Shown: positions 974 through 59,370, counted from the stretch's first letter. The stretch: DNA of 64,000 bases from a virus (IMGVR_UViG_3300044840_000109:17597-81596); one strand, 5' to 3'. The notes: generated from the sequence alone by a model not told the origin. Made by a program: numbers and translations.

Positions 974-1213
974 ATGCCCGATATGTTGCTTTCTGTCGCT
1001 GCTGCCGACTACCCCCAGGCGTTGGCGCGCTGGACCGAAACGGTCGCGCGCGTCTTCCCGACGGAGTACGAGATTCTCGACCTGACCGCCCTCGCCGACC
1101 TGAGCGTGGCCTTCAGATGGCTGTGGAGCGCGAGGTTGGGTGGTACCGCGGATGAAGTGGACCACGCGATCGGCGTCTACTCCCGCGCGGCCATCCTGAG
1201 CTTGATCAACTAG
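974..1213 (+). CDS. hypothetical protein (about 79 aa)
   Basis: ORF 833..1213; plausible start ATG 974 after an AT-rich patch; converges on the STAS gene. Confidence 0.45.
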   Translation: MPDMLLSVAAADYPQALARWTETVARVFPTEYEILDLTALADLSVAFRWLWSARLGGTADEVDHAIGVYSRAAILSLIN

Positions 1214-1584
1214 CGGCGGACGGGGAGCGCCTTCAGCATCATTTCCTTGCCGCTGAGGGCATCCTCGACGCTCGCGTAGAGCCGGAAGACCTTGTCCAGC
1301 CCGGTGACCTGAAAAATCTTGTAGATGCGCTCGGTTGGGATGACGAGCACCACGGAGCCTTCCAGCGTCCGCAGGCGCTTGAGTATGGCGACCATCGCCC
1401 CGAGCCCCGTGGCGTCCAGAAATTCGAGCTCGCTGAAGTCGAGCACCAGGTCACGGGCGCCGTCATCGATGATGGCGGAGATACTGCTGCGCCATATGGG
1501 CGCCACGTACAGGTCGATTTCGCCCTCGGTGGCGATGAGTGTGCGCCCGGCGGGCAGGGGCTTCGAGGTTATTTGTGCGTCCAT
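1210..1584 (-). CDS. STAS-domain anti-sigma-factor antagonist (BldG/RsbV/SpoIIAA-like) with Ser-to-Ala at the phospho-site
   Basis: GEIDLYVAP...LVLDFSELEFLDATGLG...IFQVTGLDKVF matches the family pattern; the usual DSTGLG reads DATGLG. Confidence 0.9.
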   Translation of the reverse strand: MDAQITSKPLPAGRTLIATEGEIDLYVAPIWRSSISAIIDDGARDLVLDFSELEFLDATGLGAMVAILKRLRTLEGSVVLVIPTERIYKIFQVTGLDKVFRLYASVEDALSGKEMMLKALPVRR

Positions 1585-1723
1585 ATGCGCAGCTTGCCAG
1601 AAGTGACCACGCGAACACGCACGGTGTCGAAGATCATTTTGTGGGGCGGCGTTTTGTTACCCCTTCGAGTCTTCCGTTGGTCACTCAGGGCCTACGGTGG
1701 GTCCACGCAAAGAGAGGGATGTG

Positions 1724-2146
1724 ATGGGGCAAGAGAGAGATCCGGCGGTGGAGATCGCTACCGCTGTGCGCCTGGTGGGGGAGGTCACGCTGTTGGCCAA
1801 GGCGTTCGATGCCGACGTGCGTGGCACGGTGCGCGCGCTGGACGTCCTGCCGGCGAAGGAGCTGCTGCGGCTCACCGAGAAGTACGCGGAGATGCAGCAG
1901 TTGGAGCATCGCGCGCTGGAGGCCGCCAACAGCGTGGTGAAGGATTTCGGGCACCGGGCTGCCGCAGGTGGGCTGCTGGGGAAGTACGCGGTCTTGGAGG
2001 AGGCGTGCCTGCGGGCGCATCGGGCCTGGGGGCCGTATATGGCTCGGGCGGTCATAACTTCCGCCGGGGAGCACCCGCAGGCGTTCTCGGCGTTGGTACT
2101 GGAAACGCGGAGCCCTGTCCCCGTGCAGGGGCCGGCGGCGGAGTAA
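1724..2146 (+). CDS. hypothetical helical protein
   Basis: ORF 1697..2146; ATG 1724 after AGAGGG SD; divergent from the STAS gene. Confidence 0.6.
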   Translation: MGQERDPAVEIATAVRLVGEVTLLAKAFDADVRGTVRALDVLPAKELLRLTEKYAEMQQLEHRALEAANSVVKDFGHRAAAGGLLGKYAVLEEACLRAHRAWGPYMARAVITSAGEHPQAFSALVLETRSPVPVQGPAAE

Positions 2147-2151
2147 CTCGG

Positions 2152-3633
2152 TCATTCCACGATTTCGGCGTCGAGGATCCCCATCTGATCCAGCGCCTCT
2201 TGGGCTGACACTGCTCCGGCGGGTGAGAGGGCCGGTACCCCCCCGGCCTTTTCTCCGAACAGTCGTGACATGAGTCCGATCTGCCCGTCGCCCTTCTGCT
2301 GCACCTTCATGCTGAAGGTGAATCCGGCCTCTTCGATGTCGGACTTGATCTTGATGTAGCGCGTGAGGCGGTCCATTTCCTTGGAGAGGTTCTGGTCGGC
2401 GTAGCCGCCATCGGCCTCTTCCGCCAGGCGCATGAAGAACACCCGGGCGCCCTGCATGGCGATGAGCGAGTCGAGCAGCGAGAGGTACTGCTCCTTGGTC
2501 TTGACCCGGATGGGGATTTCGTAGGCGCAGTTGGCCCCGGGCTGGAAGTCGGGGCATTTGTTGGCCAAAAAACATCCGGTGCACTGGCGGATGTTGAGGT
2601 CCACCACGTTGATGCGGTGCTCTGTGCGGGATTTCCTCTCCCCGGAGTCCGGGTCCGTGTAGCGGTGGGTGAATGCCTCGGACTCGATTCCGGGGAGCAG
2701 TTTTGTCACCCGTTTGGCGGGGGGTTCAGTTACTACCTCGGCACTGTCCTGCGGGAGCGTCGCCGTAGGTACCCCCAGGGCGGTTTCCTCGGTTTCGCTG
2801 TGAGCCGAATCTGGCGTGGGAGTTACTGCGTCGCCGTGGCGCCGAGAGATGTAGTCGACCTGGTGCTGCCAGGACCACAGCGAGAGTTTGAGGACCTCGG
2901 TGGGGTTGTCCGCTTCGATGAGGTCGGCGTCGAGGCCGATGTCGGTGAATAGGACGCGGTGCCTCTTCCGCGACTGTTCCTTGTAGCGGGCGGGGTAGCG
3001 GCGCAGTTCCTTGCCCGTCCACACGAACGTCTCGCCGAAGGACATGCTGCTCAGCCAGGTGGTAGAGCTGACGGAGTCCCAGTCGGCGGCGAGCATGAGT
3101 GGGGGGCTGGAGAAGCCGAAACCGTGCAGTCGATTGCTTCGAGCAAGCGAACGTAGTACTGGCACGATGTCCCGGTCACCGCAGGTTCCCTGACCCACCG
3201 CAATACGGTTGTAGCGGTCCGCGAGACGTCGAAGCTCCTCCACTCCCCATTCCTCGTGCCAGACGACGATGGCTTTGTCGGGGTCGAGTCGTTCGCGTCG
3301 ATTTTCGATCCACTCCTTGCCCATGGCGAGGGCGTCGAACTCGATATAGGCGTCGGCGCGCTGGAGGTTCTGTGCCACGAAATTGTCGTAGCTGGTGGCG
3401 ATGTTGGCGATTTCCTCGGGAGTGACGGTGACGCCCTCGCGGTTGAGGGTGTGGCATCCGGAGTCGATGAGGACGCCCTGTTCTTCGCCGAATTTCTCGG
3501 TGAGGAGCCAGGGTTTGGTGAACTTGTTGCGGCGGCGCAGTCCCATGAAGGACAGGGAGACGTGCGGGATTTCCTGCTCGGCAAGCAGCTTCCTGTGCCC
3601 GTGGACCTCCGCGCCGCCGTAGTAGAAGCGCAT
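2152..3633 (-). CDS. TGT/DpdA-like fold protein with C-terminal Cys cluster
   Basis: LIDSG, IVVWH, LHGFG and SVSSTTW motifs resemble phage queuine-tRNA-ribosyltransferase-like proteins; C-terminal CxxCx5Cx7C followed by a helical domain. Confidence 0.5.
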   Translation of the reverse strand: MRFYYGGAEVHGHRKLLAEQEIPHVSLSFMGLRRRNKFTKPWLLTEKFGEEQGVLIDSGCHTLNREGVTVTPEEIANIATSYDNFVAQNLQRADAYIEFDALAMGKEWIENRRERLDPDKAIVVWHEEWGVEELRRLADRYNRIAVGQGTCGDRDIVPVLRSLARSNRLHGFGFSSPPLMLAADWDSVSSTTWLSSMSFGETFVWTGKELRRYPARYKEQSRKRHRVLFTDIGLDADLIEADNPTEVLKLSLWSWQHQVDYISRRHGDAVTPTPDSAHSETEETALGVPTATLPQDSAEVVTEPPAKRVTKLLPGIESEAFTHRYTDPDSGERKSRTEHRINVVDLNIRQCTGCFLANKCPDFQPGANCAYEIPIRVKTKEQYLSLLDSLIAMQGARVFFMRLAEEADGGYADQNLSKEMDRLTRYIKIKSDIEEAGFTFSMKVQQKGDGQIGLMSRLFGEKAGGVPALSPAGAVSAQEALDQMGILDAEIVE

Positions 3634-5314: not shown

Positions 5315-5532
5315 TTTTCCGTGTCCTTCTTGGCGAAGAACTCCTGCAGCTTGGTGAGGGCCTCGCGCGCCTCCTTGATGGCGTCGGCGCTGCCGACGGT
5401 GAGGGCGTGCTGGACGCGGCCGAGCAGACCGTGCGCCTGGACCTGCTCCGCGGCGTCGGGGGTGATGTGCGTGGGGGTCTCAGCAGGGGCGTCCTGGGCG
5501 GTGGTGGTCTCGGGCGTGGTGTTGTCGGTCAT
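5311..5532 (-). CDS. hypothetical protein (73 aa)
   Basis: Start trimmed to MTDNTTPET; ATGA overlap. Confidence 0.6.
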   Translation of the reverse strand: MTDNTTPETTTAQDAPAETPTHITPDAAEQVQAHGLLGRVQHALTVGSADAIKEAREALTKLQEFFAKKDTEK

Positions 5533-6032
5533 GCTGTCTCCTCGTATTCCTTCTCGAACTCGGCTTCGGCGCGTGCCTGGGCGCGGCGCTCTTTGTCGCG
5601 GGTGCGTATGCAGGCGATGCATTCGCGCGAGTTATGGTGCCACCGGGTGTTTTCCTCGGTGTATTCGTGCCCGTGGGGGCAGTGTGTCTTGCGCGCGTTT
5701 TTCGCGGCGAATGATTCGCCTCGCATCAGGTTCTCCGAGTGGGGGACAGCTTCCAGGTGTTCGGGGCGGCAGCAGTTGTGGATGCGGCAGAGGTGGTCGA
5801 TGTGCCACCCCTCTGGTGCCTTCGTCTCACTGGCCATTTCCCAGGAGATAATGTGGGTGCCCTTGACCGACCCGTCGGGGAGCCTGAATTTCCCGTACCC
5901 GTCCTCGTCCAGGGCGCCGCGCCAGAGCCAGCAGTCATCGAAGTCCTCGCCCTTGTCGACCTTGTCGAAGAATCGGCGCTGCCAGTCCCACGTTTCCAGG
6001 CGCCGCGGGGCCCTGGGCTTGGGGGTGTCCAT
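5529..6032 (-). CDS. HNH endonuclease
   Basis: CWLW..GYG..H....HIDHLC....CCRPEHL...H.EN plus a CPHGH tail. Confidence 0.85.
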   Translation of the reverse strand: MDTPKPRAPRRLETWDWQRRFFDKVDKGEDFDDCWLWRGALDEDGYGKFRLPDGSVKGTHIISWEMASETKAPEGWHIDHLCRIHNCCRPEHLEAVPHSENLMRGESFAAKNARKTHCPHGHEYTEENTRWHHNSRECIACIRTRDKERRAQARAEAEFEKEYEETA

Positions 6033-11948: not shown

Positions 11949-12233
11949 TCAGGCGGTCATGACGCGGATGGCCACGCCCATGAGGTCCGTGTCGCGCTGG
12001 CGCGATACCCCGTGGAAGAACGTGATCTTCTCCACCAGGTCGACGCCGTAGCTGATGACGAATGACTGCGCGATGGGGATGGCCTTGACCGCCTGGTTCA
12101 CCGCGCCGGCGCCCACCGCCTTGAGGACGACCTGGTTGCCGTTGTTGATTGCGTGCGCGATTGCGCTGCCGAGTTCCGGGGGGGACGTGGTTGTCTTCAC
12201 CCGGAAGACCGTTTCCTTTACCTGATTCTCCAC
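11949..12233 (-). CDS. spoVS: SpoVS-family (Alba-fold) protein
   Basis: AVGAGAVNQAVKAIPIAQSF matches the SpoVS signature IGAGAxNQAVKAxAIARGF; 94 aa. Confidence 0.8.
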   Translation of the reverse strand: MENQVKETVFRVKTTTSPPELGSAIAHAINNGNQVVLKAVGAGAVNQAVKAIPIAQSFVISYGVDLVEKITFFHGVSRQRDTDLMGVAIRVMTA

Positions 12234-12288: not shown

Positions 12289-12507
12289 TTATCCGTGCGG
12301 CTGCGTGCAGGAGCACCAGTCTACGGGGCCCCATGAATAACAGCTGCTGGTCATCCCCTCGGGGTGCTCGCACGGGACGAGCCAGAATCCCGCGGTGCAG
12401 CCGCACCGTTCCTCGTCGTGCCATGCGGTGGTGGTGACGTTGCAGCGATCGCAGCGCAGGAATGGGTTGGCGAATTCGACGTACACGTGGGTGCGGGTGA
12501 AGGTCAC
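12289..12507 (-). CDS. Cys-rich hypothetical protein
   Basis: 72 aa with multiple Cys; GTGA overlap. Confidence 0.55.
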   Translation of the reverse strand: MTFTRTHVYVEFANPFLRCDRCNVTTTAWHDEERCGCTAGFWLVPCEHPEGMTSSCYSWGPVDWCSCTQPHG

Positions 12508-13061
12508 GCCCTCTTCTCCTTCATGATGGCGTCGACCACTTCCTGTTCGTATTTCAGTGCGGTCGCGCGGCTGCCGGTGATGGCGCGGGCGATTTGCATG
12601 AGTCCGTAGGCGTCAGCGAGGTCGTTGCTCTTGTATTCGACGCCCCATTTTTTGTAGACCTGCAGCAGCATGTTGTCCTTCGCCGCGGAGCCGGAGCCGG
12701 TGACGAATTTCTTGAGAGCGCTGGGAGTGGCGATGTGCAGCCGCTCCATGGGCATGATCTCGGCCAGGACGAGCTTGACGACGCCGCCGAGTTCCCCCAT
12801 CGTCTCCCTGTTGAACTTGGAGCTGGGGGCGTAGCCCTCCATGACCACGGCGCCGATCTCGAAGCGGATGCGGGTCTCCGCCAGGTACTGGTGCAGCGAC
12901 TCGCGGATGGTCCGTAGGCGCTTGCCTCCGGTGCCGGCCTTCTTGGGGCTGAAGTCGAATACCTCGTCCTCGGTCCACACGTGCGCGTCCTGCTGGAAGT
13001 GCTGCACCATGGCGAAGTGGCTGTAGGAGGGGTCGATGCCGATATGCATGGTGTCGGTCAC
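12504..13061 (-). CDS. ruvC: RuvC-like Holliday junction resolvase
   Basis: IGIDPS, VVMEGY, LKKFVTGSG.A.K, NDLADA motifs. Confidence 0.85.
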   Translation of the reverse strand: MTDTMHIGIDPSYSHFAMVQHFQQDAHVWTEDEVFDFSPKKAGTGGKRLRTIRESLHQYLAETRIRFEIGAVVMEGYAPSSKFNRETMGELGGVVKLVLAEIMPMERLHIATPSALKKFVTGSGSAAKDNMLLQVYKKWGVEYKSNDLADAYGLMQIARAITGSRATALKYEQEVVDAIMKEKRA

Positions 13062-13303
13062 TCGTAGACCTCGTTCTCAATGGTGATCCCCTCGACGGCG
13101 TGAACCAGGTCGAGCCATGCGAGCAGTGAGAGCAACGTGTCGGAGCTGAGGCCGCCGTTGTCCCGACGCAGGTGGGTGAAGATGCGGCTGCTGTGGCATC
13201 CCGTCGCGCGTTGGACCTCGCGCCAGCTGACACCGAGCTGCCGGCGCTTGTAGTCCAGGAGGCAATACAGGGCCGGACCGTCCAGGCGATGGCTGGCGGC
13301 CAT
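13058..13303 (-). CDS. HTH DNA-binding protein (81 aa)
   Basis: Start trimmed to MAASHRLD; SWREVQRATG HTH-like pattern. Confidence 0.55.
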   Translation of the reverse strand: MAASHRLDGPALYCLLDYKRRQLGVSWREVQRATGCHSSRIFTHLRRDNGGLSSDTLLSLLAWLDLVHAVEGITIENEVYE

Positions 13304-13761
13304 CAGGTGCCCCACTTCGAGGCGCGCTGATCGGTGTCGCGCGAGGCGATGCGGCGGGAGAGTTCGCGCGAGAGGAACTGGGTGCGCATGCGGGCGTTCT
13401 CGTGCACCATCTCCAGGGCGTCGACCATCCCCTGTTCCTGGTCGTGGGTGCGCTGGGCGTCCAGGACGTCGGGGTCGATCTGGGCGGTGGCTTTCTTCGC
13501 CGCGACTGTCTTGTCGGTGCTGCGGGCCTGCGCTACGGCGGTGCGGTAGGTGACCTGGTAGGCGGCTTCGCGCAGGGAGTGTCGGGCGACGGTGAGTTCG
13601 TGGGCCGCGTAGCAGGTCCACTGCGTGAAGGTGCCGAACAGACCCATGAGGTCCTTCTCCGACAGGCCGGTCACGTCGTCGGGGAGGTCGTGCATGTTGC
13701 CGGCGGGGCGGTCCTCCATGTCGAAGCCGGACGCTTCGAGGGTTTCCCAGGTCGCGTTCAT
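13303..13761 (-). CDS. coiled-coil hypothetical protein
   Basis: 152-aa helical ORF in the recombination block. Confidence 0.7.
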   Translation of the reverse strand: MNATWETLEASGFDMEDRPAGNMHDLPDDVTGLSEKDLMGLFGTFTQWTCYAAHELTVARHSLREAAYQVTYRTAVAQARSTDKTVAAKKATAQIDPDVLDAQRTHDQEQGMVDALEMVHENARMRTQFLSRELSRRIASRDTDQRASKWGT

Positions 13762-13925
13762 GCGTTCGTCCCATCGTTGGAGGCGCGCAGAGCTACCTCC
13801 GTGATGTCGTGGCCCAGGGAAAGAGCGACGTCGGGCTCAATGGTGTAGAGCACGCCGTTCAGGTACAGAGTGACGAATTCGTAGTTGGGGGTGGTTCCGA
13901 CGCGGTAGTCATCGTCCCCGATCAT
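13758..13925 (-). CDS. 55-aa hypothetical protein (not in the ORF track)
   Basis: MIGDDDYRVGTTPNYEFVTLYLNG...; ATGA overlaps at both ends. Confidence 0.6.
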   Translation of the reverse strand: MIGDDDYRVGTTPNYEFVTLYLNGVLYTIEPDVALSLGHDITEVALRASNDGTNA

Positions 13926-14821
13926 GCGGCCATCTCCGAGTAGTAGAGGCAGCTCTTGCAGCCTGCGGAGTGGTTGATGTTGCAGACCGGTGGCGAGCCG
14001 AATTTCAGGGCGTCGGTGATGATCTGCGCGCCCTCGATGAGGGGCTCGGAGAATTCCTCGTTGTAGAGGAGGGTGAAGGCCTTGGCCTGCTGGTCGGCCT
14101 TGAACTCGTAGATGAACGTGATGCGGTCCACCTCCAGGTCCTCGAAGTGCCGCGCGAGGTAGAGGTAGAGCTGACCCTGGCGCAGGGCGGAAGGCAGGGG
14201 CCGGCGGAAGTCACGCCACATGCGGGCGAGGTCCACGACGAGTCCGCGGCCTTCCATTTCGAGTTCGTATTTCGCCAGGAACTTGGGGTCCTCGTAGCGC
14301 AGGGATCCCAGGCCGAGCGTCTTGATCTCGATGAGGCAGTTGTCGTCGGGGCAGTAGCCGTCGGTGCTGCCGCCGATGGTGAGGGCGGGGGCGTTGAGTT
14401 CCACCTCGGCGTATTCCAGGTCCCGGCAGAAACACCGCGGGCATTGTTGCGGCCGGGCGTCGAGCCAGAACTTGTGCTTGCAGGACCGGCAGAGCCAGTC
14501 ACCCGCCAGGCGGTCCATCTCGGTGAGCCATCCCTGCCACTTCTTGTGGGTGTTGTGGCCCTCCTGGAAGATGTTCTCCCTGGTGAACGCGGTGGTCTTT
14601 GCTTCGCCGCCGTTGCGCAGGAGCTTGTAGTACGCCGCTCGGTGGCACCATCCGGGCTTGACCATCTCGGATGGGTGCAGGACATCGGTGCGGCGGCCGT
14701 CGGGCTGGTAGGCCTTGGCGACGACGTGCTTCTGAATGTCACCGAAAAGAACCTCGGTGCTCTTGGAGGCTTCCAGGTAAGCGGCAAGTCCGGGGCCGGG
14801 CTTTACGATGCTTCGAGCCAC
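13922..14821 (-). CDS. Cas4-like PD-(D/E)XK exonuclease
   Basis: LHPSE..C.R, GSTDG, LIEIKT, QGQLY, C-terminal C..C..C; start trimmed to GTG ARSIV. Confidence 0.8.
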   Translation of the reverse strand: MARSIVKPGPGLAAYLEASKSTEVLFGDIQKHVVAKAYQPDGRRTDVLHPSEMVKPGWCHRAAYYKLLRNGGEAKTTAFTRENIFQEGHNTHKKWQGWLTEMDRLAGDWLCRSCKHKFWLDARPQQCPRCFCRDLEYAEVELNAPALTIGGSTDGYCPDDNCLIEIKTLGLGSLRYEDPKFLAKYELEMEGRGLVVDLARMWRDFRRPLPSALRQGQLYLYLARHFEDLEVDRITFIYEFKADQQAKAFTLLYNEEFSEPLIEGAQIITDALKFGSPPVCNINHSAGCKSCLYYSEMAA

Positions 14822-15156
14822 AGGAGTTCCTCCGTGTCGGGTTGTCCTTCGGCGCGCCAGATCCAGCGCTCGGGCATTCCCGGGTAGCGCAGGCGCAGAG
14901 TGAGGCGGGCAGCGGGTGACATGCCGCCCCATATTCCGTAGTTCTCGCGGTTCTGCATGGCGGTGCGCAGGCATTCGTTTCGGCGCGGGCATATCTCGCC
15001 GTCGCGGCGGCCGTTGCAGAAGTCCATGGCGGCCTGGTCATTCTCAAAGAAAAGGTCGGGTCCGCCGTGGGTGGTGGAGTTTCGGCGGCACTTGGCGGCG
15101 CCGCGATGGTGCGCTTCGGACCAGTCGGGCGCTGGTACCTGGGGACGAATAGCCAT
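14803..15156 (-). CDS. WhiB-family (Wbl) transcription factor
   Basis: Four Cys, PDLFF, CPRRNEC, YGIWGGMS; start trimmed to MAIRPQ. Confidence 0.85.
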   Translation of the reverse strand: MAIRPQVPAPDWSEAHHRGAAKCRRNSTTHGGPDLFFENDQAAMDFCNGRRDGEICPRRNECLRTAMQNRENYGIWGGMSPAARLTLRLRYPGMPERWIWRAEGQPDTEELLWLEAS

Positions 15157-15158
15157 AG

Positions 15159-15473
15159 CTATTCCTCTTTCGTCTGCTTCATGTGTTCGAGGAAGGCTGC
15201 GTAGGAGATCGTCACCCACATGCGCCCTTCGATCTCGGTAATAAAAGCCATCTCGCGGCCGTCGAGAATGGCCTGCCGCTCCGCGAGTTGCAATGCGGCT
15301 CCGGTGAGGCGGAAGCCCTTGGTCGTGGTCGTCTTGCATTCGATGGACCAGGTGTCGTTGCGGACGTCGTTCTTGACGGCCCATCCGTTTCCGCTGCCCG
15401 GGGTGACACGCCCGCCCAGGTCCTTGGCGACGCGCTTCTCCTGGGTGCGGGAGGCGCGGACGCGTGGGTCCAT
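15159..15473 (-). CDS. PD-(D/E)XK nuclease, Hjc-like resolvase
   Basis: QEKRVAK..GG..TPGSG...ND....IECKTT. Confidence 0.7.
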   Translation of the reverse strand: MDPRVRASRTQEKRVAKDLGGRVTPGSGNGWAVKNDVRNDTWSIECKTTTTKGFRLTGAALQLAERQAILDGREMAFITEIEGRMWVTISYAAFLEHMKQTKEE

Positions 15474-16528
15474 CAGGCTGCCTTCGTGGCGGCGTGCAGA
15501 ATCTCGTCTCGCAGCTTGGCGACGAGTTCGTACTCCTCGCGCAGGGCCGCGATCATCTGCGGCTTGCCGTTCCACTTCTCGTCGCCGTAGCGGAACCACT
15601 TCGCGGCGGGGGTGGTGGGTTCGATGACGCCGTACAGGACGCCGAGGGCGACCACCTCGGCCACGCCGTCGTACTCGCCGGCCCGGAAACCGGAGGGGGT
15701 GTTCGCGAAATAGAAGTTCACCGAGGCGACCTGCTGGGGGGCCGCCGCCTTGTTTTTCAGGGTCTTGAGCTTGATGACCTGCCCGACGCGCTGCTTTCCC
15801 GCCCCGTCGGCGCGGGCCTCGTCCAGCCACTCGGTGCGCTTGACTTCCACGCGGCAGTAATAGGCGTAGTCCTTGGCGTGTCCGCCCGGTGTCACCTGGG
15901 GGACCATGCCGTGGAACACGGGTGATCCGATCTTGTCCCGGTATTGGTTGATGATCAGACCGAGGAAGGGGCGCTCCTGCGTAATCATGGAGCGTGCGGT
16001 AGGGCCTCCGACTTTGCGGAAGAATTTTCCGGTGAGCCTGGCGCCGACGGATATGGTGGCCTCTCCCATTTCCTTGGCGGCCTCGTCGTCGGGGACCAGC
16101 GCGGGGTAGGAGTCCAGGACCACGCAGTCGACCGCGCGGGAGTCCGCGGCCTTGATCATCGCGGTGTAGGCGTCCTCCATTGCGTTGGTGACGTGCACGA
16201 TCACCCGTGAGGTGTCGACGCCCAGGGTGGTGGCCCACTCCGCGTCGTATCCCTCGGCCGCGACCCACAGCACCGTGTAGTCGGGGTCGCGCTGCTGGTT
16301 GGCGGCGACCGTCTTGTGGACGATGGTGGTTTTTCCGCTGGATTCCGTGCCGACGATCTCGTGCCACTGGTTCCCGGGCCAGCCACCGCCGAGCATGACG
16401 TCGAGCGAGAGGGATCCGGTGGGAAAGCGGGGGACGGTGGGCATATCCGAGGCCATTACGAAGACCCCGTCGCCTGCTTGCTTGTTGAGTTGCGCCATAA
16501 GCGCACGGGCATCTTCGCGCAGTGCCAT
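15473..16528 (-). CDS. recA: RecA/UvsX-like recombinase
   Basis: TGSLSLDVMLGGG, GTESSGKTT Walker A, VVLDS, INQYR, TPGG. Confidence 0.92.
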   Translation of the reverse strand: MALREDARALMAQLNKQAGDGVFVMASDMPTVPRFPTGSLSLDVMLGGGWPGNQWHEIVGTESSGKTTIVHKTVAANQQRDPDYTVLWVAAEGYDAEWATTLGVDTSRVIVHVTNAMEDAYTAMIKAADSRAVDCVVLDSYPALVPDDEAAKEMGEATISVGARLTGKFFRKVGGPTARSMITQERPFLGLIINQYRDKIGSPVFHGMVPQVTPGGHAKDYAYYCRVEVKRTEWLDEARADGAGKQRVGQVIKLKTLKNKAAAPQQVASVNFYFANTPSGFRAGEYDGVAEVVALGVLYGVIEPTTPAAKWFRYGDEKWNGKPQMIAALREEYELVAKLRDEILHAATKAA

Positions 16529-16564
16529 GGAGGTCCCTCTGCCGAGTGCGAGCCGAGGGGTCTT

Positions 16565-16608
16565 ACGTTAGGAACTTCAGAAAATCGCGCATATCAGCCG
16601 AACGGGTG
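16565..16608 (-). promoter_or_regulatory. promoter with box CACCCGTTCGGCT-N10-ATTTT-N10-TAACGT
   Basis: Identical 13-mer and spacing at 21952-21995. Confidence 0.6.
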
Positions 16609-16667
16609 CGCAAATAAAAGAGGCCCCGCTCGCGCATGGGATCACGGGCGGGGACTTGGTGCTTACT

Positions 16668-17111
16668 CTATTCGATTCTCCCGATGATGGTTTTCGGGAA
16701 AAACCCGCCGCGGAGCTGACCCAGCGCGGCGCGAGCCGGAGCGGAGGCGGAGTCCTGAGTGCGCATGGCCGACATGCCGGCGGTGGAGTGCTGGGCGCGG
16801 TCCAGGCCGTAGTTGCAGTCGAAGCAGCGCAGGGGGGAGTTGGACGTGCCGCGCCCGTAGTTGCCGCTGCCGCACATGGGGCAGGTGTCGTGCAGGTGGG
16901 CCGAGGGTGCCAGGCGCTGGGGGATGGCGGTGGCGGTCAGCGGGTGCACGTCCAGCGGGCCGGGCGGCGCCGGGGTGGGCTGCGTGGCCAGGCCGGCGGT
17001 GGCGTAGGTCGGCTGCTGCCACCAGGGGATGCCGGCGGGGGGTGCTTCGTAGGAGGCGGCCGGGGCGGCGGGTTGCACGCCCGCGAGCTTCCTGGACCAG
17101 AAATCGCTCAT
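16668..17111 (-). CDS. Zn-ribbon hypothetical protein
   Basis: Start MSDFWSRK; CPMC...CFDC. Confidence 0.7.
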   Translation of the reverse strand: MSDFWSRKLAGVQPAAPAASYEAPPAGIPWWQQPTYATAGLATQPTPAPPGPLDVHPLTATAIPQRLAPSAHLHDTCPMCGSGNYGRGTSNSPLRCFDCNYGLDRAQHSTAGMSAMRTQDSASAPARAALGQLRGGFFPKTIIGRIE

Positions 17112-17383
17112 GGCTGGTGTACCTCCCGCAGTGCGTCGGTGACCTCTTCGTCGGTGAAAATGTGGGCGCAGCCGAAGTCGTGGCAGACCCCCACCCACTC
17201 ACCTCCGTTGGCGGTGACCCACGCGGCGTCGTCGCCCTCGCCGCAGTGGACGCGCAGCGCACCGTTGTTGCCCCACTGGAGTCGGGCGCCGCCGATGTCC
17301 ATGATGATTTTCGCGTGTGTTTCGGAGTCGGTGGGGTCGTAGCGGTGCAGCTCGTAGTACTGGGGGATGGTGACGAACATCAT
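17108..17383 (-). CDS. hypothetical protein
   Basis: Start trimmed to MMFVTIP; ATGA overlap. Confidence 0.6.
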   Translation of the reverse strand: MMFVTIPQYYELHRYDPTDSETHAKIIMDIGGARLQWGNNGALRVHCGEGDDAAWVTANGGEWVGVCHDFGCAHIFTDEEVTDALREVHQP

Positions 17384-17520
17384 CGCGCCTCCAGCAGATG
17401 CGTTCCGAATTCCAGGTGCGCGCCCGTGGTCGTGGTCCACACGCGCGATTTCCAGCTGCAGCAGCAGCTGCTCCAGCAGCCGAAGCGGCGCGTCCAGTAG
17501 AGGGTCAGGTGGTGCTTCAC
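17380..17520 (-). CDS. 46-aa Cys/Trp-rich peptide (not in the ORF track)
   Basis: MKHHLTLYWTRRFGCWSSCCCSWKSRV...; GTGA and ATGA overlaps with both neighbours. Confidence 0.5.
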   Translation of the reverse strand: MKHHLTLYWTRRFGCWSSCCCSWKSRVWTTTTGAHLEFGTHLLEAR

Positions 17521-17876
17521 GGAGTGACCTTCAGCTTTCCGATGTCTACGAGGTGGGCCACGGAGGCGTGGACGGCGGCGGAGGCGATGGCCTGGTAGAG
17601 GCCGAGGTCCTCGGTGCCGTCGTTGTTCCCCGCCATGAAGAGATTGTGTACGACGTTTCCGGCGATGGCTGCCGTCTCGGCGATGTCGGTGGCGATTTCA
17701 CCGACGGCATTGATGCGCCCGTGCGATTCCAGGTGCTCGCGCTCGTCCACGTCGGGTGACGAGGGAGTCAGGTCGAGCGTATGACACCACTCGGGGAATT
17801 GAGGACACGCCACCAGGTCACGCACCATGCCGCGGTACGTGATGAGGCGTCGGTACTCCTGCACGTGCGGCTCCAT
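17517..17876 (-). CDS. hypothetical protein
   Basis: 119-aa ORF after AGGA SD. Confidence 0.65.
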   Translation of the reverse strand: MEPHVQEYRRLITYRGMVRDLVACPQFPEWCHTLDLTPSSPDVDEREHLESHGRINAVGEIATDIAETAAIAGNVVHNLFMAGNNDGTEDLGLYQAIASAAVHASVAHLVDIGKLKVTP

Positions 17877-17906
17877 AGTCCTAATGTAAGCGGGTTGATT
17901 TACCTA

Positions 17907-19817
17907 TTATTTGGCCTCCGACCAGCGGTCGCAGATCTTGACGTCCGTGGTGAGGGGGACGGAGAGCAGTTGCATGTCGGTTCCCGCCATTGCCTCGTGC
18001 AAAAGGACCGCTCCCTCCTTGGCGATGTCCTCGGGGCACAGGGCGGCGAGTTCATCGTGCACCGTGAGGATTAGCCGCATACCCGGCAATAGGGTTTTGT
18101 GCATGCGCGTCATCGCCAGCTTGGTGATGTCGGCGTTCGATCCCTGGATATGTGAGTTGACGACCTGACGTTCCGCTTCGGCGCGCATGCGCGGGACGTG
18201 GGAGAGGAGGTTGGGCAGACGTCGCTTGCGGCCGAGCAGGGTGCGCAGGTAGGGCTCGGGCCGGCGGGCGCGTACGGTGCGCAGGATCTCCGCCTTGTAC
18301 CGGTAGATCTCGGGGAAGTTCTTCTTGTGGGTGGCCAGGATCTGCTTGGCCTGACGCACGGAAATCCCCGCCATCTGGGCCACGGTGTCGGGGCCGGCGT
18401 CATAGTTGATCGCGAAGGCGATCGCCTTGGCGATGGTGCGGGCATCCTTGGTGACGTCCTCCGGAGCGATCCCGAAGACGGCGGCGGCGGTGGCCGTGTG
18501 GGCGTCGATGCCGTCCCAGAACCCCTGCCATAGCGCGCCGCGGCCGGCGAAGTGCGCGAGGATGCGCTGCTCGATCTGGGCGTAGTCCGCGACCAGCAGC
18601 TTGAATCCGGCGGGGGGGACGATGAGGTTGCGGATGCGCTGCCCGTAGAACGTGTCGGCGCGCGGCCAGTTCTGCACGTTCGGGTCAGCGCAGCTGAACC
18701 GGCCGGTGACGGTGCCGTACTGCTTGAAGCTCGGGTAGATGTGCCCGTTGAAGATTTTTGTCGGCTTGTCCTCGGTGCCGAGGTAGCCATCGACGTAGGT
18801 GCCCAGGATCTTCGAGTGCTCCTGGTAGTCCAGGATCTCGTCCACGACGTGGTTGCCCTTGTGCGACGCCAGCGCCTTCGCGTCGGTGCTGGGGGCGCCC
18901 TTGTCGGTGAAGCGCGTTGGACGCAGGCCCTGGCCGCCTTCGTCCCTGGGGCCGTAGAGGATCTTCACCTTCTGTGGCACGGAGCCGAGGTTGAACGTAG
19001 TCCCCGCAGCCTGGTAGACGCGGCCCTCGGTGAGGACCAGGTGGGCGCGCAGGTCATCGCGCAGGGCCTCCAGCGCGGCGCGGTCGATGGGGGCGCCGCG
19101 TTGCTGCATGTGCAGCAGGCAGTGCAGGACGTCCATCTCCAGGTCCCACACGGAGTCCAGGCCCTGGGCGGTGAGCTGGGGGCGCCAGCGCTTCCAGTGC
19201 AGCCAGGTGGTGCGCCCGTCGAGGTAGGCATAGGTGTGGACCTTGCCGAACTCGTGGGCCTCGACCTTGCGACCGACGTTCTCGTGGTCGTAGTCGAGCT
19301 GGTAGGTGGCCTTGTCGAGCGCCTTGAGGCCGATCAAGCGGTTCTCGTTCGCCAGCCACGCGGCGACGATCGTGTCCCCGTAGGGCGGGGGAGGAAATTC
19401 TCCGCCGAAATACTTCGCCACGCTCAGGAGGTCGAAGGGTGCGTTGTGCGCGATTTTCCTACGGTCGGAAAAGAACAGCGGTCGCAGCGCGGAGAAAACC
19501 TGGGACGGGCGTAGCTGCGGAGGTGGCTCGGTGAACAGTGCGTGGACGGTCTCCCGCTCCCCGGTGGTCTTGTTTTTCCGCCAGGTCGCCTTGCGCAGGC
19601 ACTCGTACCCGTTGGGGTGGCCCATGGGGATGACGGTGGTGGCACCCTCGGTGGCCAGGGAGATCCAGGTGACGGTGTTGACCGCGGGGATGCCCCGGTG
19701 CTCGCCCACGGTCTCTACGTCGAAGGCGAACTCGTCGTGCTGCGAGAAAAACGCGATGGTCTCTTCGAGTGAATCCAGGTCCGTGACGAGCTGTGGAGGG
19801 TGCATCGCGGCCTTCAT
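17907..19817 (-). CDS. polA: DNA polymerase family A with 3'-5' exonuclease
   Basis: FDVET, HNAPFD, TGRFS..PNVQN, ADYAQIEQR, KAIAF..NY, VHDEL; start uncertain (19877, 19817 or 19805). Confidence 0.92.
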   Translation of the reverse strand: MKAAMHPPQLVTDLDSLEETIAFFSQHDEFAFDVETVGEHRGIPAVNTVTWISLATEGATTVIPMGHPNGYECLRKATWRKNKTTGERETVHALFTEPPPQLRPSQVFSALRPLFFSDRRKIAHNAPFDLLSVAKYFGGEFPPPPYGDTIVAAWLANENRLIGLKALDKATYQLDYDHENVGRKVEAHEFGKVHTYAYLDGRTTWLHWKRWRPQLTAQGLDSVWDLEMDVLHCLLHMQQRGAPIDRAALEALRDDLRAHLVLTEGRVYQAAGTTFNLGSVPQKVKILYGPRDEGGQGLRPTRFTDKGAPSTDAKALASHKGNHVVDEILDYQEHSKILGTYVDGYLGTEDKPTKIFNGHIYPSFKQYGTVTGRFSCADPNVQNWPRADTFYGQRIRNLIVPPAGFKLLVADYAQIEQRILAHFAGRGALWQGFWDGIDAHTATAAAVFGIAPEDVTKDARTIAKAIAFAINYDAGPDTVAQMAGISVRQAKQILATHKKNFPEIYRYKAEILRTVRARRPEPYLRTLLGRKRRLPNLLSHVPRMRAEAERQVVNSHIQGSNADITKLAMTRMHKTLLPGMRLILTVHDELAALCPEDIAKEGAVLLHEAMAGTDMQLLSVPLTTDVKICDRWSEAK

Positions 19818-19933
19818 GGCTGGTAGAAATAGTCCACGTCGGCACGGGGCGTCACAAATCCCGCCGATGTACAGCACCCCTCGGCGTTGTCCGATGTGCC
19901 CACGTTGTGGCGTCGGGGGGTGCGCCCAATTTC

Positions 19934-20620
19934 TTAGTCGTCCAGCAGGATCTTCACGATGTCGCCCATGTCGGCGGCGTCGAGGGTGTCCTTGACGGGC
20001 TCCTTATAGGCGTCGACCTGGAAGCCGAGGATGACCTCCTCGCTCAGGGGCGGCATTGCGTACTCCTCTTCGAGGTCACGGGCGCGGATGCGCTCCAGTA
20101 CGTACTCCACCGACTTGTTTTTCTGCACCTTCTTGACGCTGAAGTACAGGTCGGCCCGGTTGAGCGGCCCCTTCTTCTCGTCCAGCGCGATTTCCTTGAG
20201 GAGTCGGGCGATTTTCACACCGGCCTCCCAGACCCGCAGGACCGGGAGCTTGGGGTCGGCGAGGGAGACGACGTTGAAGCAGGCCGCGAACTTCTTGGGC
20301 TTGTCGCCGATGCTGCACAGGGGGCAGTCGGCATTCGCCCAGCAGCGGATGGACTTGCTCCCGTCCTCCACCTCGTCCACCCAGTGCGAGACATAGTTGT
20401 CGAAGGGCTCGGAGTCCAGGATCTTGATGACGGTGTCCTTTTCCTCGACCTTCAGGTAGAGGTCTCCGCCGACGCCCGCGGCGGCCTTGTCCATGCCGCC
20501 CCATCCGCTGGTGTCGGTGACCGCGGGAGCGACGGCGCTTCCCTCGGAGGCGCCCTTCTTGAACTCGGCCTCCTTGGTGTCCGGGAGGGAGCGGCGGCGG
20601 CCGAACTGCTTCTCAGGCAT
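19934..20620 (-). CDS. single-stranded DNA-binding protein (putative)
   Basis: Position in the replication block; H..C..C.LC Zn motif; acidic C-terminus. Confidence 0.6.
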   Translation of the reverse strand: MPEKQFGRRRSLPDTKEAEFKKGASEGSAVAPAVTDTSGWGGMDKAAAGVGGDLYLKVEEKDTVIKILDSEPFDNYVSHWVDEVEDGSKSIRCWANADCPLCSIGDKPKKFAACFNVVSLADPKLPVLRVWEAGVKIARLLKEIALDEKKGPLNRADLYFSVKKVQKNKSVEYVLERIRARDLEEEYAMPPLSEEVILGFQVDAYKEPVKDTLDAADMGDIVKILLDD

Positions 20621-21077
20621 TTTCGTTCCATTCGTGGATGGGCGGGGGCATGATTCCCTTGGTGGTGCGGAAGAGTTCCGTGCACCTGGAGGGGAAAAGG
20701 GTTTCTCCGAGGTACCTTTTGGTGCCGTGGAGAAGTCCCTCGTCAGTGGCGATACGGACCACGCCGTCGATCTGCTGGCGGGTGTAGAGGCGTCGCTGCC
20801 CGTGACGGGAGGCGCCGTTGTAGACGAAGGTGGGGCGCGGGAAAAGCCCGGCCTGCTCCCACTTGTAGATGGTTTTCGGGGAACGCTGGAGCGCGTGGCC
20901 GAGGTGGGATATCCCGAAGAACTCGCGCATGTATCCGTCCACGCGCTTGTAGATGGGGTCTTCGTCCCATCCCGAGAATCCGCGCGAGTAGAGGGATGTG
21001 TGCGTGGGCGGTCCCAGGGGCTGGGTGGTGCCCGGGTACACGTCCAGGGGCCGGCGCGGCTGCGGGGGGATGCTCAC
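20613..21077 (-). CDS. MerR-like HTH protein
   Basis: ISHLGHALQRSPKTIYKWEQAGLFP...RRLYT; start GTG 21077. Confidence 0.7.
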   Translation of the reverse strand: MSIPPQPRRPLDVYPGTTQPLGPPTHTSLYSRGFSGWDEDPIYKRVDGYMREFFGISHLGHALQRSPKTIYKWEQAGLFPRPTFVYNGASRHGQRRLYTRQQIDGVVRIATDEGLLHGTKRYLGETLFPSRCTELFRTTKGIMPPPIHEWNENA

Positions 21078-21427
21078 GACGTGGAGTCCATCTCCCGCAG
21101 CAGGCGCACCCGGGCCGCGTCCAGCTCGTCCAGCTCGGCGCGCAACTCCTTGGCTCGGCGTTCTTTGGGCGTCAGCTTTCGGCTGATGACGCCGCTGCCG
21201 GACAGGTCCAGGAGGTGGGCGATGGCGCACAGGGTGAGCCCGTCGGGCAGGGACTTGCCGGCGAGCCAGGTGCTCACGGTCCAGGGGCTGAAGGCGCCGC
21301 CCTTGCGGCCGAGCAGGGAGCCGAGCAGGTCCCCGAGGTCCGCGGTGGTCAGGTGCAGATCGTTCATGCGCTCCGTGATGGCCTCGGCGTTGAGGCCGAA
21401 GGTGATTTCGCTGCCGTATTCGTTCAT
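21074..21427 (-). CDS. XRE-type HTH transcription regulator
   Basis: TVSTWLAGKSLP...IAHLL plus C-terminal coiled coil. Confidence 0.7.
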   Translation of the reverse strand: MNEYGSEITFGLNAEAITERMNDLHLTTADLGDLLGSLLGRKGGAFSPWTVSTWLAGKSLPDGLTLCAIAHLLDLSGSGVISRKLTPKERRAKELRAELDELDAARVRLLREMDSTS

Positions 21428-21891
21428 GTGGCGAGCCCCTTGAATGCGTAGCTCTCGTGCTGGACGAAGATGGCGTCCATGTCGGATTCGGTGAGCACTC
21501 CCTCCTGCAGGAGCACGTACAGCTCGTCGGGGTCGAACACGGGGCGCATCGGGAATGCGCGGCGAAGGAATTCCTCGCCCTTGGAGCCGATAATCTCCTC
21601 GGCGCGGTCGACGTCGGGGGAGATGCTGACGCGGCGTTCGCGCTTGATGCGCTGGTACTTGTAGCCGCCCACTTCGAGTTCGAAGGGGAGGTCGATGTAC
21701 TGCGAGCCCTTGTGGTCGCGGTAGCCGCGCTCCTCGACTGCCTTGACGACGCGGTCTCGCAGCTTGTCCCGGACGCGCATGCTGATCTCGATCTCCGCTT
21801 TGAGCATCGCCCACTGGCGGAATACCGGGATAATCGGGTCCACGGGGACCGGAGTTTCTTCTTCGTGTACGTCCGAAAATGGCTCGGGCAT
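21424..21891 (-). CDS. hypothetical protein
   Basis: 155-aa ORF, first gene after the promoter box. Confidence 0.7.
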   Translation of the reverse strand: MPEPFSDVHEEETPVPVDPIIPVFRQWAMLKAEIEISMRVRDKLRDRVVKAVEERGYRDHKGSQYIDLPFELEVGGYKYQRIKRERRVSISPDVDRAEEIIGSKGEEFLRRAFPMRPVFDPDELYVLLQEGVLTESDMDAIFVQHESYAFKGLAT

Positions 21892-21951
21892 ACGGGTGAC
21901 CTACTTCCTGTGGGAGTGGTACCGGGAGCTACTGCAACATCCGGTGCGCTC

Positions 21952-56833: not shown

Positions 56834-56871
56834 TTTGGTCGGGCCTTCCTATACGTACGTGGTGCAGCCGC

Positions 56872-57654
56872 TCAGTCGAAGAGCCCGCGATTGGTGGAAT
56901 TCGCGCCCTTTCCCAGAAGCTGCGGCCGAAGCGCCGCGAACTGCTTCATGGGCATTGCCTTGAGCTGCTCAGGGGTGAGGGTCTGGGTGTTTCCCTCGTT
57001 GTCGAGGGGACCGGCGGAGGTAAAGCCGGTGGGGGCCGTCCCGCGCAGCTGCGAACGGGCCGCAGTCTGAGCGCCGGCGACGGACTGGAGAATCTCGTCC
57101 GTCTTCGCCTTCAGCAGCTCAACGGAGGCATCCACCTCTTCACGGGTGTCCCCGGAGATAAGGTCGACCAGCTGCGGCGCAATCGACTCGCGCTCCTGGT
57201 TCACGCGCTCCTGGATATAGGCGCGAAGCTGCGCGAATTCCGCCTCCTTGGCGAGAGCTGCCTCCCGAAGGACACGCTGCTCTTCCAGGGTCGCGAAGCG
57301 CTGCTCGAATTCCTGGGTCTTGGCCTGGAGGAGCTTGCGGGCGGACATCTCCGCCTCGGCCTTCGCCTTCTTGCGGTCGCCCCTTCCGGCGTCCTTGGCG
57401 GCCTTCGCCGCTTCCTTCGCCGCCTTGCGCTCGTCGCGTTCCCGCGAAATGCGCTGCAGCTCGGTCTCCACCGACGCCACGCGCTCGTCCGCCCTCGTCA
57501 GGCGGCCGTAGAGCTTGTCCTTCTCCTCCTGACGCGCCCGCTCCATATCGGCAGCGGTGAACGTCTTCGGAGGATTGGTCACCGTAATGGTGTCCACCGG
57601 GAGCGTGTTCGTAGTGGTAGTGAGGGTTACTTCAGGAAGAGGGACGGTCATCAT
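56872..57654 (-). CDS. capsid scaffolding protein
   Basis: FT..D.E.AR..EK.KLY; coiled coil; between portal and MCP. Confidence 0.8.
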   Translation of the reverse strand: MMTVPLPEVTLTTTTNTLPVDTITVTNPPKTFTAADMERARQEEKDKLYGRLTRADERVASVETELQRISRERDERKAAKEAAKAAKDAGRGDRKKAKAEAEMSARKLLQAKTQEFEQRFATLEEQRVLREAALAKEAEFAQLRAYIQERVNQERESIAPQLVDLISGDTREEVDASVELLKAKTDEILQSVAGAQTAARSQLRGTAPTGFTSAGPLDNEGNTQTLTPEQLKAMPMKQFAALRPQLLGKGANSTNRGLFD

Positions 57655-57665
57655 TCACCCCTGTG

Positions 57666-59370
57666 TTAGTCCGAGTCTTTGTCCGGATTCCTCAGCTGGG
57701 CGAGTTTTGTGCCCTGCGCGAGAGTCGTGAGTTCGGAAATCATTGATTGGCCGCTTTGTCCGACCTCGACCCCAGGAAGACCTGGGAGAGGGCCGGGATC
57801 CGCGCCTTCCGGACTGTCGCCGGCGCTCGCAGGTGCTGGAGCCTCCACCCCTTCGGGAGGGAGCCCTGTAGCACGGAGAATGGCAGAAGCAATTTGCGCT
57901 TTAATAAAGTCAAGCGCTCCGTCTTCCTTCGCTTCGACAAGCTGCTCATCGAAAATCTCGGCCATTTTCTCGTCGGGAAAGTCGCACCCCAACTCTCGAA
58001 GAGCCCCACGCTTCGACTCCAGGCCGAGCGCGAGCTTCGCCTGAATCTCGTTCAACTTGATGAGCTGATCGATAGGAAGCGGCGGAGGCCAGTCGATATC
58101 CGTCTGGTAGACGCTCGGATCCGACGGGTCGAGAATCAGCGGCTGCTCGTCGCTGGTCTGGATCCCGTCGGTGTCCGGGTTGTACGCCAGCGTCTCGGGC
58201 TCGTAGAGGAAGAGGGTCCGCAGGATCAGCGAATTGATGACGCGCAGGCCGATGCTGTAGTTCGTCTGCTTCAGCGAATACCTTGACATCAATGGCATGT
58301 ACATGATGGACAGGGCAACCCCACTCGTATTCGAGATCGGTTGCATCTGCCCGAGAGCCGTCTCCGGGACGCCCGTCAGCTCATGCATCGCCCGCTTGAT
58401 GAGTTCCAGGTACTGCAGGGGCCCATTGAGGTCGACGCCGTTTTCCAAATTGAAGACATTCGCGTCCTTGGGGAGCCCGCCCCACACTTTCTTGGCTCCA
58501 CGCTCAAGCGACGAAACTTTCGCACCGGTCACGATGGTCAAAGGCGCACTGTGATAATTCACAATGTCGCTGACTTCGGTGCACTTCTCGTTGTACTCGC
58601 GGTTGAGCGGGATCACGTCCACGATGTCCGACAGGCCCCAGGGGGAGCCGGACACGGAGATGTTGCGAATGTGGACGATGGGGATCTCGCCCAGGGGGTT
58701 CACGCGGGCGTCGAGCAGCTCGTCGTTGACGTATTCCTCGATGTAGGAATCTGTGAGGATTTCCGTGTAGGTGTACACGGTCCTGGTCCCCTCCAGCGAG
58801 GTCCCCCAAAACCGGTATTTGATCTTTACACGAAGCAACCTGTCGCGGTCGTGCGGATGGTATTCAGGAAAGACCTGGGCGCCGTTGAGCGGGAGCACGC
58901 GTACGCGGCCCGGGTGGAGGTTCCCGGCACTGTCGTTCCACGCGGCCTCGTAGGCGACCTTGACGAAGCAGTCGCCCGCCACCGAGCCGTTCTCGCCCAT
59001 CTGCCATAGGACGGTTTTCTTGTCGTTGTCGACGGTCCAGACGCGGTCCAGGAGGGCCGGGATGATGTGCTCGTACTTTTTGTCGGTCTGGAAGTTGACG
59101 CCGCGACCGAAAGTGAAGTTGGTGATGTACCGCGAAAGCGCGCCGACGTAGTTGACCGTGATGTTCGGCTCGCCGGCCTCACGCCGATACGCCCAGTGGT
59201 AGCCGAGGTAGAACGCCCATGCGTTCGCGTAGCGGGTCAGGCGGGGACCGTGGACCTCGAATTCATCGAGGTAATTCGTCCGCCAGCTCAACGAGGCCGA
59301 GCGGGCTCACGGAGATAGTGAGGTCGCTGGCTGCAGCGCGCTGCGATGGAGAGACAAAGGCGATCGACAT
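57666..59370 (-). CDS. portal protein, split reading frame (59275..59370 joined to 57666..59261 by proposed translational bypass)
   Basis: Portal-like body (GD.FVKV, PIVHI.N, WG.SD..D.I.LN..YN); AAGGAGGTGA SD before ATG 59370 in a different frame; ORF-track TTG 59291 lacks an SD. Confidence 0.85.
59254..59277 (-). other. candidate UUA-triggered translational bypass site GAA-[TTACCTCGAT]-GAA
   Basis: Matched GAA codons 10 nt apart, TTA right after take-off, in-frame TGA, 7-bp hairpin ACCTCGA/TCGAGGT. Confidence 0.75.

Follow-up and report, generated by a model that had tools for sequence, protein, structure and literature searches.

Does the DNA analysed here encode one system by which a phage senses and steers the development of its Streptomyces host, or does it hold a set of separate elements? 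The window, i.e. the whole stretch of 64,000 nucleotides (nt; IMGVR_UViG_3300044840_000109:17597-81596), had been said in a preliminary description to combine into such a system a 'TTA-gated portal', a STAS protein that lacks the phospho-Ser and mimics the regulator BldG, a WhiB-like gene and a SpoVS-like gene. The four elements are indeed present together in this genome and lie where they had been placed, with Pfam matches over the curated cut-offs throughout (Table 1). In our assessment they are probably real but independent features, namely a putative UUA bypass gate in the portal gene, a BldG-like decoy and two lineage-wide module genes, in a window that covers most of the genome (~110 kb) of a temperate phage, which is a relative of Streptomyces phage BRock and has a Streptomycetaceae host; this judgement covers both statements jointly. 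Two of the four, the UUA gate and the non-phosphorylatable BldG decoy, may touch host development as independent devices, going by the functions deduced for them.

The portal gene does contain a TTA, but the portal body does not use this triplet as a sense codon; it stands at the head of a 10-nt gap by which the gene is divided in two. The triplet (59274-59272, minus strand) is in frame with the ATG at 59370, and past codon 32 this zero frame reads UUA CCU CGA UGA and stops at the TGA 59265-59263 after 35 codons. The portal body (SPP1-type Pfam match at 57666-59291 on the minus strand, 82 bits, over the curated cut-off) is in the +1 frame. What the window holds is therefore not a portal open reading frame (ORF) with an ordinary TTA in it but a gene split by a TTA-led gap of 10 nt. 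BRock and 152 of the 175 fetched portal relatives possess an unbroken ...LGLVELADEEFEVHGPRL; the window bears 10 additional nt past the GAA, and deleting these (TTACCTCGAT) restores ...LVELADEEFEVHGPRL, as in BRock and the same relatives. No other sense-frame TTA occurs in the ~60-kb leftward gene block, and no tRNA-Leu(UAA) gene was found in the record from which the window is taken, in its complete relative G001 (a 109-kb viral contig) or in the ~105-kb prophage of Streptomyces sp. HMX87.

The body is 55-61% identical to the portals of Borockvirus-type Streptomyces phages and 77-80% to Streptomyces prophage portals. Compared with five relatives, the 5' segment has 12-16 synonymous and 1-3 non-synonymous codon differences, which argues for purifying selection on this segment. 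An N-truncated portal initiated at TTG 59291, the first in-frame start of the body, was considered and rejected, there being no Shine-Dalgarno sequence for it and the 5' segment being under purifying selection. A second assembly (Logan) of the probable source soil run shows the identical gap site; coming from the same sample, it excludes an assembler artefact and nothing more. Two landing choices are present in the window: GAU, which is near-cognate with the take-off codon GAA and restores the conserved sequence, and the cognate GAA (59264-59262), which drops one Glu.

When the 175 portal relatives are scanned over their first 300 codons, 33 gaps appear, spread over 23 loci and ten positions (reference residues 29-174); their lengths are 4-10 nt, apart from a single gap of 25 nt. 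All 21 gaps in loci of the Streptomyces-type clade (local GC 0.63-0.65) are headed by an in-frame TTA, and 11 of them occur in cultured Streptomycetaceae/actinomycete genomes. Gap-bearing actinomycete isolate genomes number eight (seven Streptomycetaceae, one labelled Saccharothrix); cultured lysogens whose portal is gapped include Streptomyces sp. HMX87 and S. mangrovi CGMCC 4.7117. The head codon is TAA in locus L137 (local GC 0.61), and TGA, TAG or TAA in the low-GC freshwater contigs checked (local GC 0.41-0.45) and in the other non-clade gaps. Once the gaps are taken out, every clade member possesses a full-length ORF of ~567-585 codons, and no TTA codon is left in any gap-bearing portal. 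In 14 of the 25 unique gaps the take-off codon and the landing triplet are synonymous, against 5.4% expected (Poisson-binomial P = 7.5e-13). According to a quick tree, with support from the Shimodaira-Hasegawa-like approximate likelihood ratio test (SH-aLRT) only, the gaps group in three clades. TTA gaps are limited to one of these, at varying positions; in the clade that holds the window 13 of 16 distinct sequences are interrupted, in the sister Streptomyces prophage clades none.

The gaps do not form one frameshift class, as in-frame gaps of six and nine nt with stop-codon heads exist too. The 25-nt gap of a Kitasatospora prophage (L099) has a stop inside the frame to be entered, so that a simple frameshift cannot rescue this portal; the same gap, in the portal region L099:1894-1990, contains a CCCC-UCGG-GGGG hairpin and has CGA to CGC as take-off and landing codons. 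In the prophage portal of S. diastatochromogenes ATCC 21481 (L100:1879-1955) the frame is broken by a 1-nt deletion in a C run; unlike the TTA gaps, this lesion probably reflects either faulty sequencing of the homopolymer or a true pseudogene. Several TTA-led gaps can occur in one portal, e.g. at residues 29, 40 and 55 (L089:1479-1651) or 40, 55 and 174 (L103:1543-1992). At residue 40, four loci (L089 at 1540-1560, L090, L103 and L108) contain an in-frame 6-nt insert CGA-TTA-CGY without a stop; decoding would add Leu-Arg and a CGA-to-CGY hop would skip both, so not every TTA insert aborts the protein. Stop-headed gaps of the same design and in the same portal region are present in metagenome contigs (L024, L041, L055, L066, L084, L085, L008, L020, L021 and L026; GC 0.41-0.45 in the four measured), several of which possess perfect take-off/landing pairs (TTC..TTT, CAT..CAC, CTT..CTT).

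UUA-led gaps of 7-10 nt have been reported in the large terminase genes of phage phiHau3 (two gaps) and of two prophages, StrepC.1 and S. catenulae, and the terminase bypass is backed by mass spectrometry in Escherichia coli (Antonov et al. 2023, PMC10732093). According to the logic proposed for phiHau3, functional bldA tRNA is lacking during vegetative growth, and bypass then yields terminase; later the UUA is decoded, translation stops and no terminase is made (PMC10732093). Published UUA-led bypass comprises these three terminase genes with four sites only (PMC10732093), and portal bypass is mentioned neither there nor in other papers found on the topic. Judged by its sequence, the window site is a new example of UUA-led bypass, in another essential gene and another phage lineage. 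As in the phiHau3-type cases, a short UUA-headed in-frame insert interrupts an essential late gene of a phage with a Streptomyces host, its flanks are contiguous in relatives, and a zero-frame stop (59265-59263) soon past the UUA means that decoding would abort the protein. Take-off and landing codons match in the phiHau3 type, whereas the pair in the window, GAA/GAU, is near-cognate. The gene is furthermore a portal and not a terminase, it belongs to an unrelated, BRock-like lineage of ~110 kb, its relatives hold up to three gaps per gene at ten positions, with stops in place of UUA in the low-GC ones, and the evidence is that of sequence. The phiHau3 terminase bypass is reportedly also to be credited to Smith et al. 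2013. The portal gap resembles the bypass of phage T4 gene 60 in its take-off codon followed by a non-decoded codon, the hairpin from the A site and, with the reservation just made for GAU, the matching landing codon; it differs from T4 in its length (10 versus 50 nt), in the hungry sense codon that replaces UAG, and in having no demonstrated nascent-peptide signal.

On the phiHau3 model, ribosomes that decode the UUA with bldA tRNA would terminate two codons later, and those stalled with peptidyl-tRNA-Glu on GAA would hop to GAU or GAA and resume or, with lower probability, shift to +1, either route giving a full-length portal. Portal synthesis, and hence virion assembly, would be favoured while charged bldA tRNA is scarce, as in vegetative hyphae, and reduced later. 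The earlier proposal that UUA reads the developmental state of the host thus survives in part: by analogy with phiHau3 the site is a plausible sensor of bldA-tRNA availability, but its polarity should be opposite to that of a simple 'TTA-dependent portal', in that decoding leads to a stop and non-decoding favours the hop.

The STAS protein carries the motif FLDATGLG where BldG, RsbV and SpoIIAA have D-S-(S/T)-G, and the absence of the phospho-Ser, as originally described, is thereby confirmed. In a pairwise alignment Ser57 of BldG (DSTG) stands opposite Ala58 (DATG), a column that is Ser in RsbV and SpoIIAA as well. The label of BldG mimic holds as a statement of homology. The top STAS match in all four Streptomyces genomes searched is a conserved protein of 113 amino acids (aa; 45-47% identity, 90-93 bits, E ~1e-25), and the next STAS paralogues reach at most 63 bits. 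The HMX87 copy of this protein (45% identity over 111 aa), directly downstream of which lies an RsbW-like gene, belongs to a cluster named 'anti-sigma factor antagonist BldG' with RSBV_STRCO as representative. By these best matches and the cluster name, the closest paralogue of the phage protein is BldG and not another STAS protein. Both BldG (SCO3549 of S. coelicolor) and SpoIIAA/RsbV are, like the phage protein, single STAS domains of 113-124 aa; the identity with BldG is 45% over the full length and includes the common motifs GEID.Y.AP, D-x-TGLG and KIF..TGL.KVF. Unlike BldG, SpoIIAA and RsbV, the protein has Ala for the phospho-acceptor Ser, is phage-borne, has no adjoining kinase gene and is an orphan.

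The gene itself is an intact ORF with a phage-like GC content at third codon positions (GC3) of 0.86, an accessory gene in the variable junction that separates the serine integrase from the end of the replication arm. The exact protein is also known from a contig of 112,096 bp; its 90% cluster contains no other protein, and its nearest database relatives are ~44% identical, of which the one with its context checked (P0006) lies among cellular and not phage genes. No STAS homologue was found in the real actinophages of the phage collection, nor a STAS domain of any kind in 14 related viral records, of which six have a completeness of 90% or more. The HMX87 and NPDC051840 prophages possess a different STAS gene (36-37% identical, Ser kept), elsewhere in the accessory arm among small unknown ORFs. 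A consensus scan gave no promoter or terminator calls near the STAS gene. Within the window no RsbW-type kinase gene adjoins it; in the other assembly of the same sample a HATPase_c_2 gene is present ~5.5 kb past the window end. BldG itself sequesters UshX, and several RsbW homologues phosphorylate it (PMC8346170). The phage protein, as a diverged BldG in which Ala takes the place of Ser57, could serve as a decoy immune to switch-off by phosphorylation: since phosphorylation could not inactivate it, it would stay bound to RsbW-type anti-sigma kinases, its presumed target, and release SigB-family sigma factors. We infer from the sequence that the protein is such a non-inactivatable antagonist, titrating RsbW-type kinases.

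The WhiB-like gene is embedded in the replication/recombination module and the SpoVS-like gene lies directly downstream of it. Orthologues of the WhiB-like protein with the same four Cys and 58% identity are present in G001 and the HMX87 prophage. The WhiB-like gene occurs in 11 of the 14 related viral records and the SpoVS-like gene likewise in 11; both are present in all six records that are at least 90% complete and in the lytic BRock, and the three records without them are fragments. All relatives tested have one copy of the SpoVS-like gene, at the syntenic position, and the gene extends to Bacillus phage BCD7 and to a gut phage, both with related portals. This distribution marks the two genes as vertically inherited, lineage-wide module genes and not as acquisitions specific to this phage. 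The WhiB-like protein, which has the four Cys, the G[IV]WGG turn and the basic C-terminal region of actinophage and actinobacterial Wbl proteins, probably acts as a transcription factor of the Wbl type; it departs from the usual Wbl in its Cys spacing (C-x8-C-x5-C instead of C-x2-C-x5-C), a spacing that the lineage conserves. For the SpoVS-like protein, binding of nucleic acid is probable. It has the Pfam SpoVS domain and a size similar to Bacillus subtilis SpoVS and to PDB 2EH1, a SpoVS-related protein of the non-sporulating Thermus thermophilus. Unlike B. subtilis SpoVS it is phage-encoded, just downstream of the RuvC/RecA block, in actinomycete hosts without SpoVS, and it has no sporulation link here. 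In four Streptomyces genomes no host SpoVS was found, the sole homologue being the prophage's own, which leaves the supposed tie of SpoVS to Streptomyces development empty.

Table 1. Positions of the portal elements, the three other genes in question and further annotated genes in the window.
Feature	Position	Strand	Evidence and remarks
Shine-Dalgarno sequence AAGGAGGTGA of the portal gene	59375-59384	minus	Read from sequence; strong; serves ATG 59370
Portal 5' segment, codons 1-32, the last being the take-off codon GAA (59277-59275)	59275-59370	minus	Aligns to N-termini of BRock and other uninterrupted portals
10-nt coding gap TTACCTCGAT	59265-59274	minus	UUA in A site; zero-frame UGA 59265-59263; landing GAU 59267-59265; resume GAA 59264-59262
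7-bp hairpin ACCUCGA-UGAAU-UCGAGGU	59254-59272	minus	From third UUA base; predicted centroid fold, z-score -1.6
Portal 3' segment (body), SPP1 Gp6-type	57666-59264	minus	Pfam PF05133, E 5e-23
STAS anti-sigma-factor antagonist, BldG homologue, Ala58 for BldG Ser57	1210-1584	minus	Pfam PF01740, 72 bits; NCBIfam TIGR00377, 75 bits; both over cut-offs
WhiB-like (Wbl) protein	14803-15156	minus	Pfam PF02467, 45 bits, over curated cut-off; Cys C-x24-C-x8-C-x5-C, GIWGG turn
SpoVS-like protein	11949-12233	minus	Pfam PF04232, 58 bits, over curated cut-off; PDB 2EH1 match, E 6e-8
Replication/recombination module	12504-29889	minus	Pfam; colinear with G001 and HMX87 prophage
RuvC-like resolvase	12504-13061	minus	Pfam; replication/recombination module
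RecA	15473-16528	minus	Pfam; replication/recombination module
Pol A	17907-19877	minus	Pfam; replication/recombination module
SNF2 helicase	21999-23594	minus	Pfam; replication/recombination module
Primase	23601-24584	minus	Pfam; replication/recombination module
DnaB	24926-26182	minus	Pfam; replication/recombination module
Helicase loader	27120-27929	minus	Pfam; replication/recombination module
Large terminase	60599-62083	minus	Pfam
Tyrosine-recombinase-like gene, divergent from large terminase	62178-63314	plus	Pfam; precomputed Pfam on Logan contig

That the four elements form one programme, in which UUA senses host development and the BldG mimic, WhiB and SpoVS steer it, holding the host in a permissive phase or timing lysis, is quite improbable. 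All four do occur in one genome, two of them touch known Streptomyces developmental regulators (the bldA tRNA, PMC10732093, and BldG), and genes of the DUF397 (BldB-like) and RsbW-like kinds exist in the same clade. However, the combination does not hold across relatives, where the STAS gene is absent (0 of 14), the WhiB-like and SpoVS-like genes are essentially universal whatever the gate or lifestyle (11 of 14 each), and portal gaps are patchy (23 of 175 loci); elements that fail to co-occur in this manner do not make up a four-part system. They are moreover not physically linked, being dispersed over 58 kb in different modules, and SpoVS, present in relatives with non-actinobacterial hosts, has no Streptomyces counterpart to mimic. 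A narrower version, in which two independently acquired devices act on the same host decision, is unlikely: the UUA hop would make portal only at limiting bldA tRNA, the BldG(S57A)-like decoy, constitutively active, would unleash SigB-family sigma factors, and the two together would delay or redirect host development and in this way hold the packaging gate open. If true, it would be the first phage anti-sigma-factor antagonist shown to reprogram a developmental partner-switching network. That the insert inactivates the portal of a defective prophage, or is an artefact, with the STAS gene as a decaying host passenger, is the least credible reading. It would suit a metagenome contig with a provirus label and 82% completeness, and a relative (L100) does have a plain 1-nt deletion in a C run; it is contradicted by 33 gaps of one design in 23 loci, eight actinomycete isolate genomes among them, by full-length portals throughout once the gaps are removed, by the purifying selection on the 5' segment, by the same site in an independent assembly and by the intact STAS ORF with its GC3 of 0.86.

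Rather unlikely, in our estimate, is that both devices are internal to the phage and involve no sensing of development. The portal gap would then be a general translational attenuator, for low output or as a tie to translational stress, or a selfish mini-insert tolerated via hopping, and the STAS protein would antagonise a phage RsbW-like protein beside a WhiJ-like repressor and a BldB-like gene, as a lysis-lysogeny partner switch. This is supported by the several in-frame gaps and by stop-headed gaps of like design in low-GC relatives, for which a logic based on bldA is impossible, as well as by the HATPase_c_2, HTH_31/DUF5753 and DUF397 genes after the recombinase-like gene on the Logan contig, of which HATPase_c_2 and DUF397 appear again in G001. 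Yet the Streptomyces-clade gaps are all UUA-led though stops would work, no other UUA is tolerated in those portals, the STAS protein is nearest to BldG and not to a phage family, and G001 has an RsbW-like gene but no STAS gene. The reading of independent features, with a bldA-sensitive gate and a host-directed decoy, which we prefer, has several observations to contend with. Low-GC relatives head such gaps with stop codons instead of UUA, so the gaps need not be development sensors. The landing GAU in the window is near-cognate at best, and a +1 frameshift giving ...ADE-YLD-EFEV is the less likely alternative for this site; local hairpins are clear at several related gaps and absent at others, and were not treated as a shared signal. 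In the STAS protein, Thr59 is in principle conceivable as an alternative phosphorylation site. RsbW-like (HATPase_c_2), WhiJ-like (HTH_31/DUF5753) and BldB-like (DUF397) genes follow the recombinase-like gene just past the window, and the RsbW-like and BldB-like genes recur in the complete relative G001; the phage seems to possess an RsbW-like gene of its own, and the STAS target may therefore be a phage rather than a host protein. STAS-type genes, of two different types, are present in the accessory arms of three of six TTA-gated clade genomes, which makes a loose association of STAS genes and gaps at clade level possible. For all four elements, finally, function is deduced from sequence.

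With our preferred reading of independent features, the portal gaps would extend the UUA-led bypass design, known from terminases, to the portal gene of another phage lineage, and the natural series of 33 gaps, some of them in cultured Streptomyces, makes bldA-dependent recoding directly testable. A phage homologue of BldG predicted to be immune to phosphorylation is a ready probe of the promiscuous BldG/anti-sigma network and a candidate means by which a phage could manipulate host development. The 'sporulation' labels (SpoVS, WhiB) on the phage genes reflect lineage ancestry here, not a developmental toolkit.

The window makes up the final 64 kb of an IMG/VR record of 81.6 kb, which comes from a soil metagenome, is labelled provirus and has a CheckV completeness of 82%. 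Its GC content is ~66%, and nearly all genes from 1.2 to 62 kb point leftward. No close phage record emerged at the DNA level when 40 kb of the window were compared by megablast with 50,697 phage records. According to the portal protein, the nearest isolates are the Streptomyces phages BRock, Alone3, LuckySocke, GiJojo and pSt2308 (55-61% identical), with genome sizes of 112-116 kb, followed by Bacillus phage BCD7 (33% identity). Nearer portal relatives (74-80% identity) are uncultured viral contigs and prophages in Streptomyces, Kitasatospora and 'Saccharothrix' genomes. In G001 and the HMX87 prophage the genes come in the same, colinear order. A large serine recombinase, located left of the window at 14795-16843 of the record, has a 63% identical counterpart at one end of the HMX87 prophage, and the orthologue of the gene at 2152-3633 of the window lies at the opposite prophage end; in the present record just 2.9 kb separate the two genes, which points to the joined, attP-side arrangement.

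At the right end the IMG/VR provirus boundary probably cuts off phage DNA. The genes past this end are known from the precomputed Pfam labels of the Logan contig alone; after the recombinase-like gene adjoining the large terminase these comprise KTSC, NUDIX, Mur_ligase_C, D-Ala-D-Ala ligase, HATPase_c_2, HTH_31/DUF5753 and DUF397 genes. G001 shares the recombinase-like, HATPase_c_2 and DUF397 genes in mirror order.

Further features were noted in the record and its relatives. The serine recombinase (L186:14795-16843) possesses a C-terminal DUF4096 (IS4/5 transposase-like) domain, and the record left of the window (L186:10485-11477) also encodes a 330-aa Lsr2-like protein with ~225 additional residues past the Lsr2 domains. 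The leftward block encodes, in its distal part, an HNH_3 endonuclease (window 5529-6032). In the accessory arm of the HMX87 prophage (L197:2595-2693) ARAGORN predicts a tRNA-Trp(CCA) of 99 nt; this length is unusual, and the prediction may be false or the tRNA gene may hold an insert. DUF397 (BldB-like) genes occur in seven of 14 relatives (among them G006, G007, G011, G012, G013 and G017), and two DUF397-bearing records have direct terminal repeats, which suggests that this family of Streptomyces 'developmental' paralogues is commonly phage-borne in the lineage.

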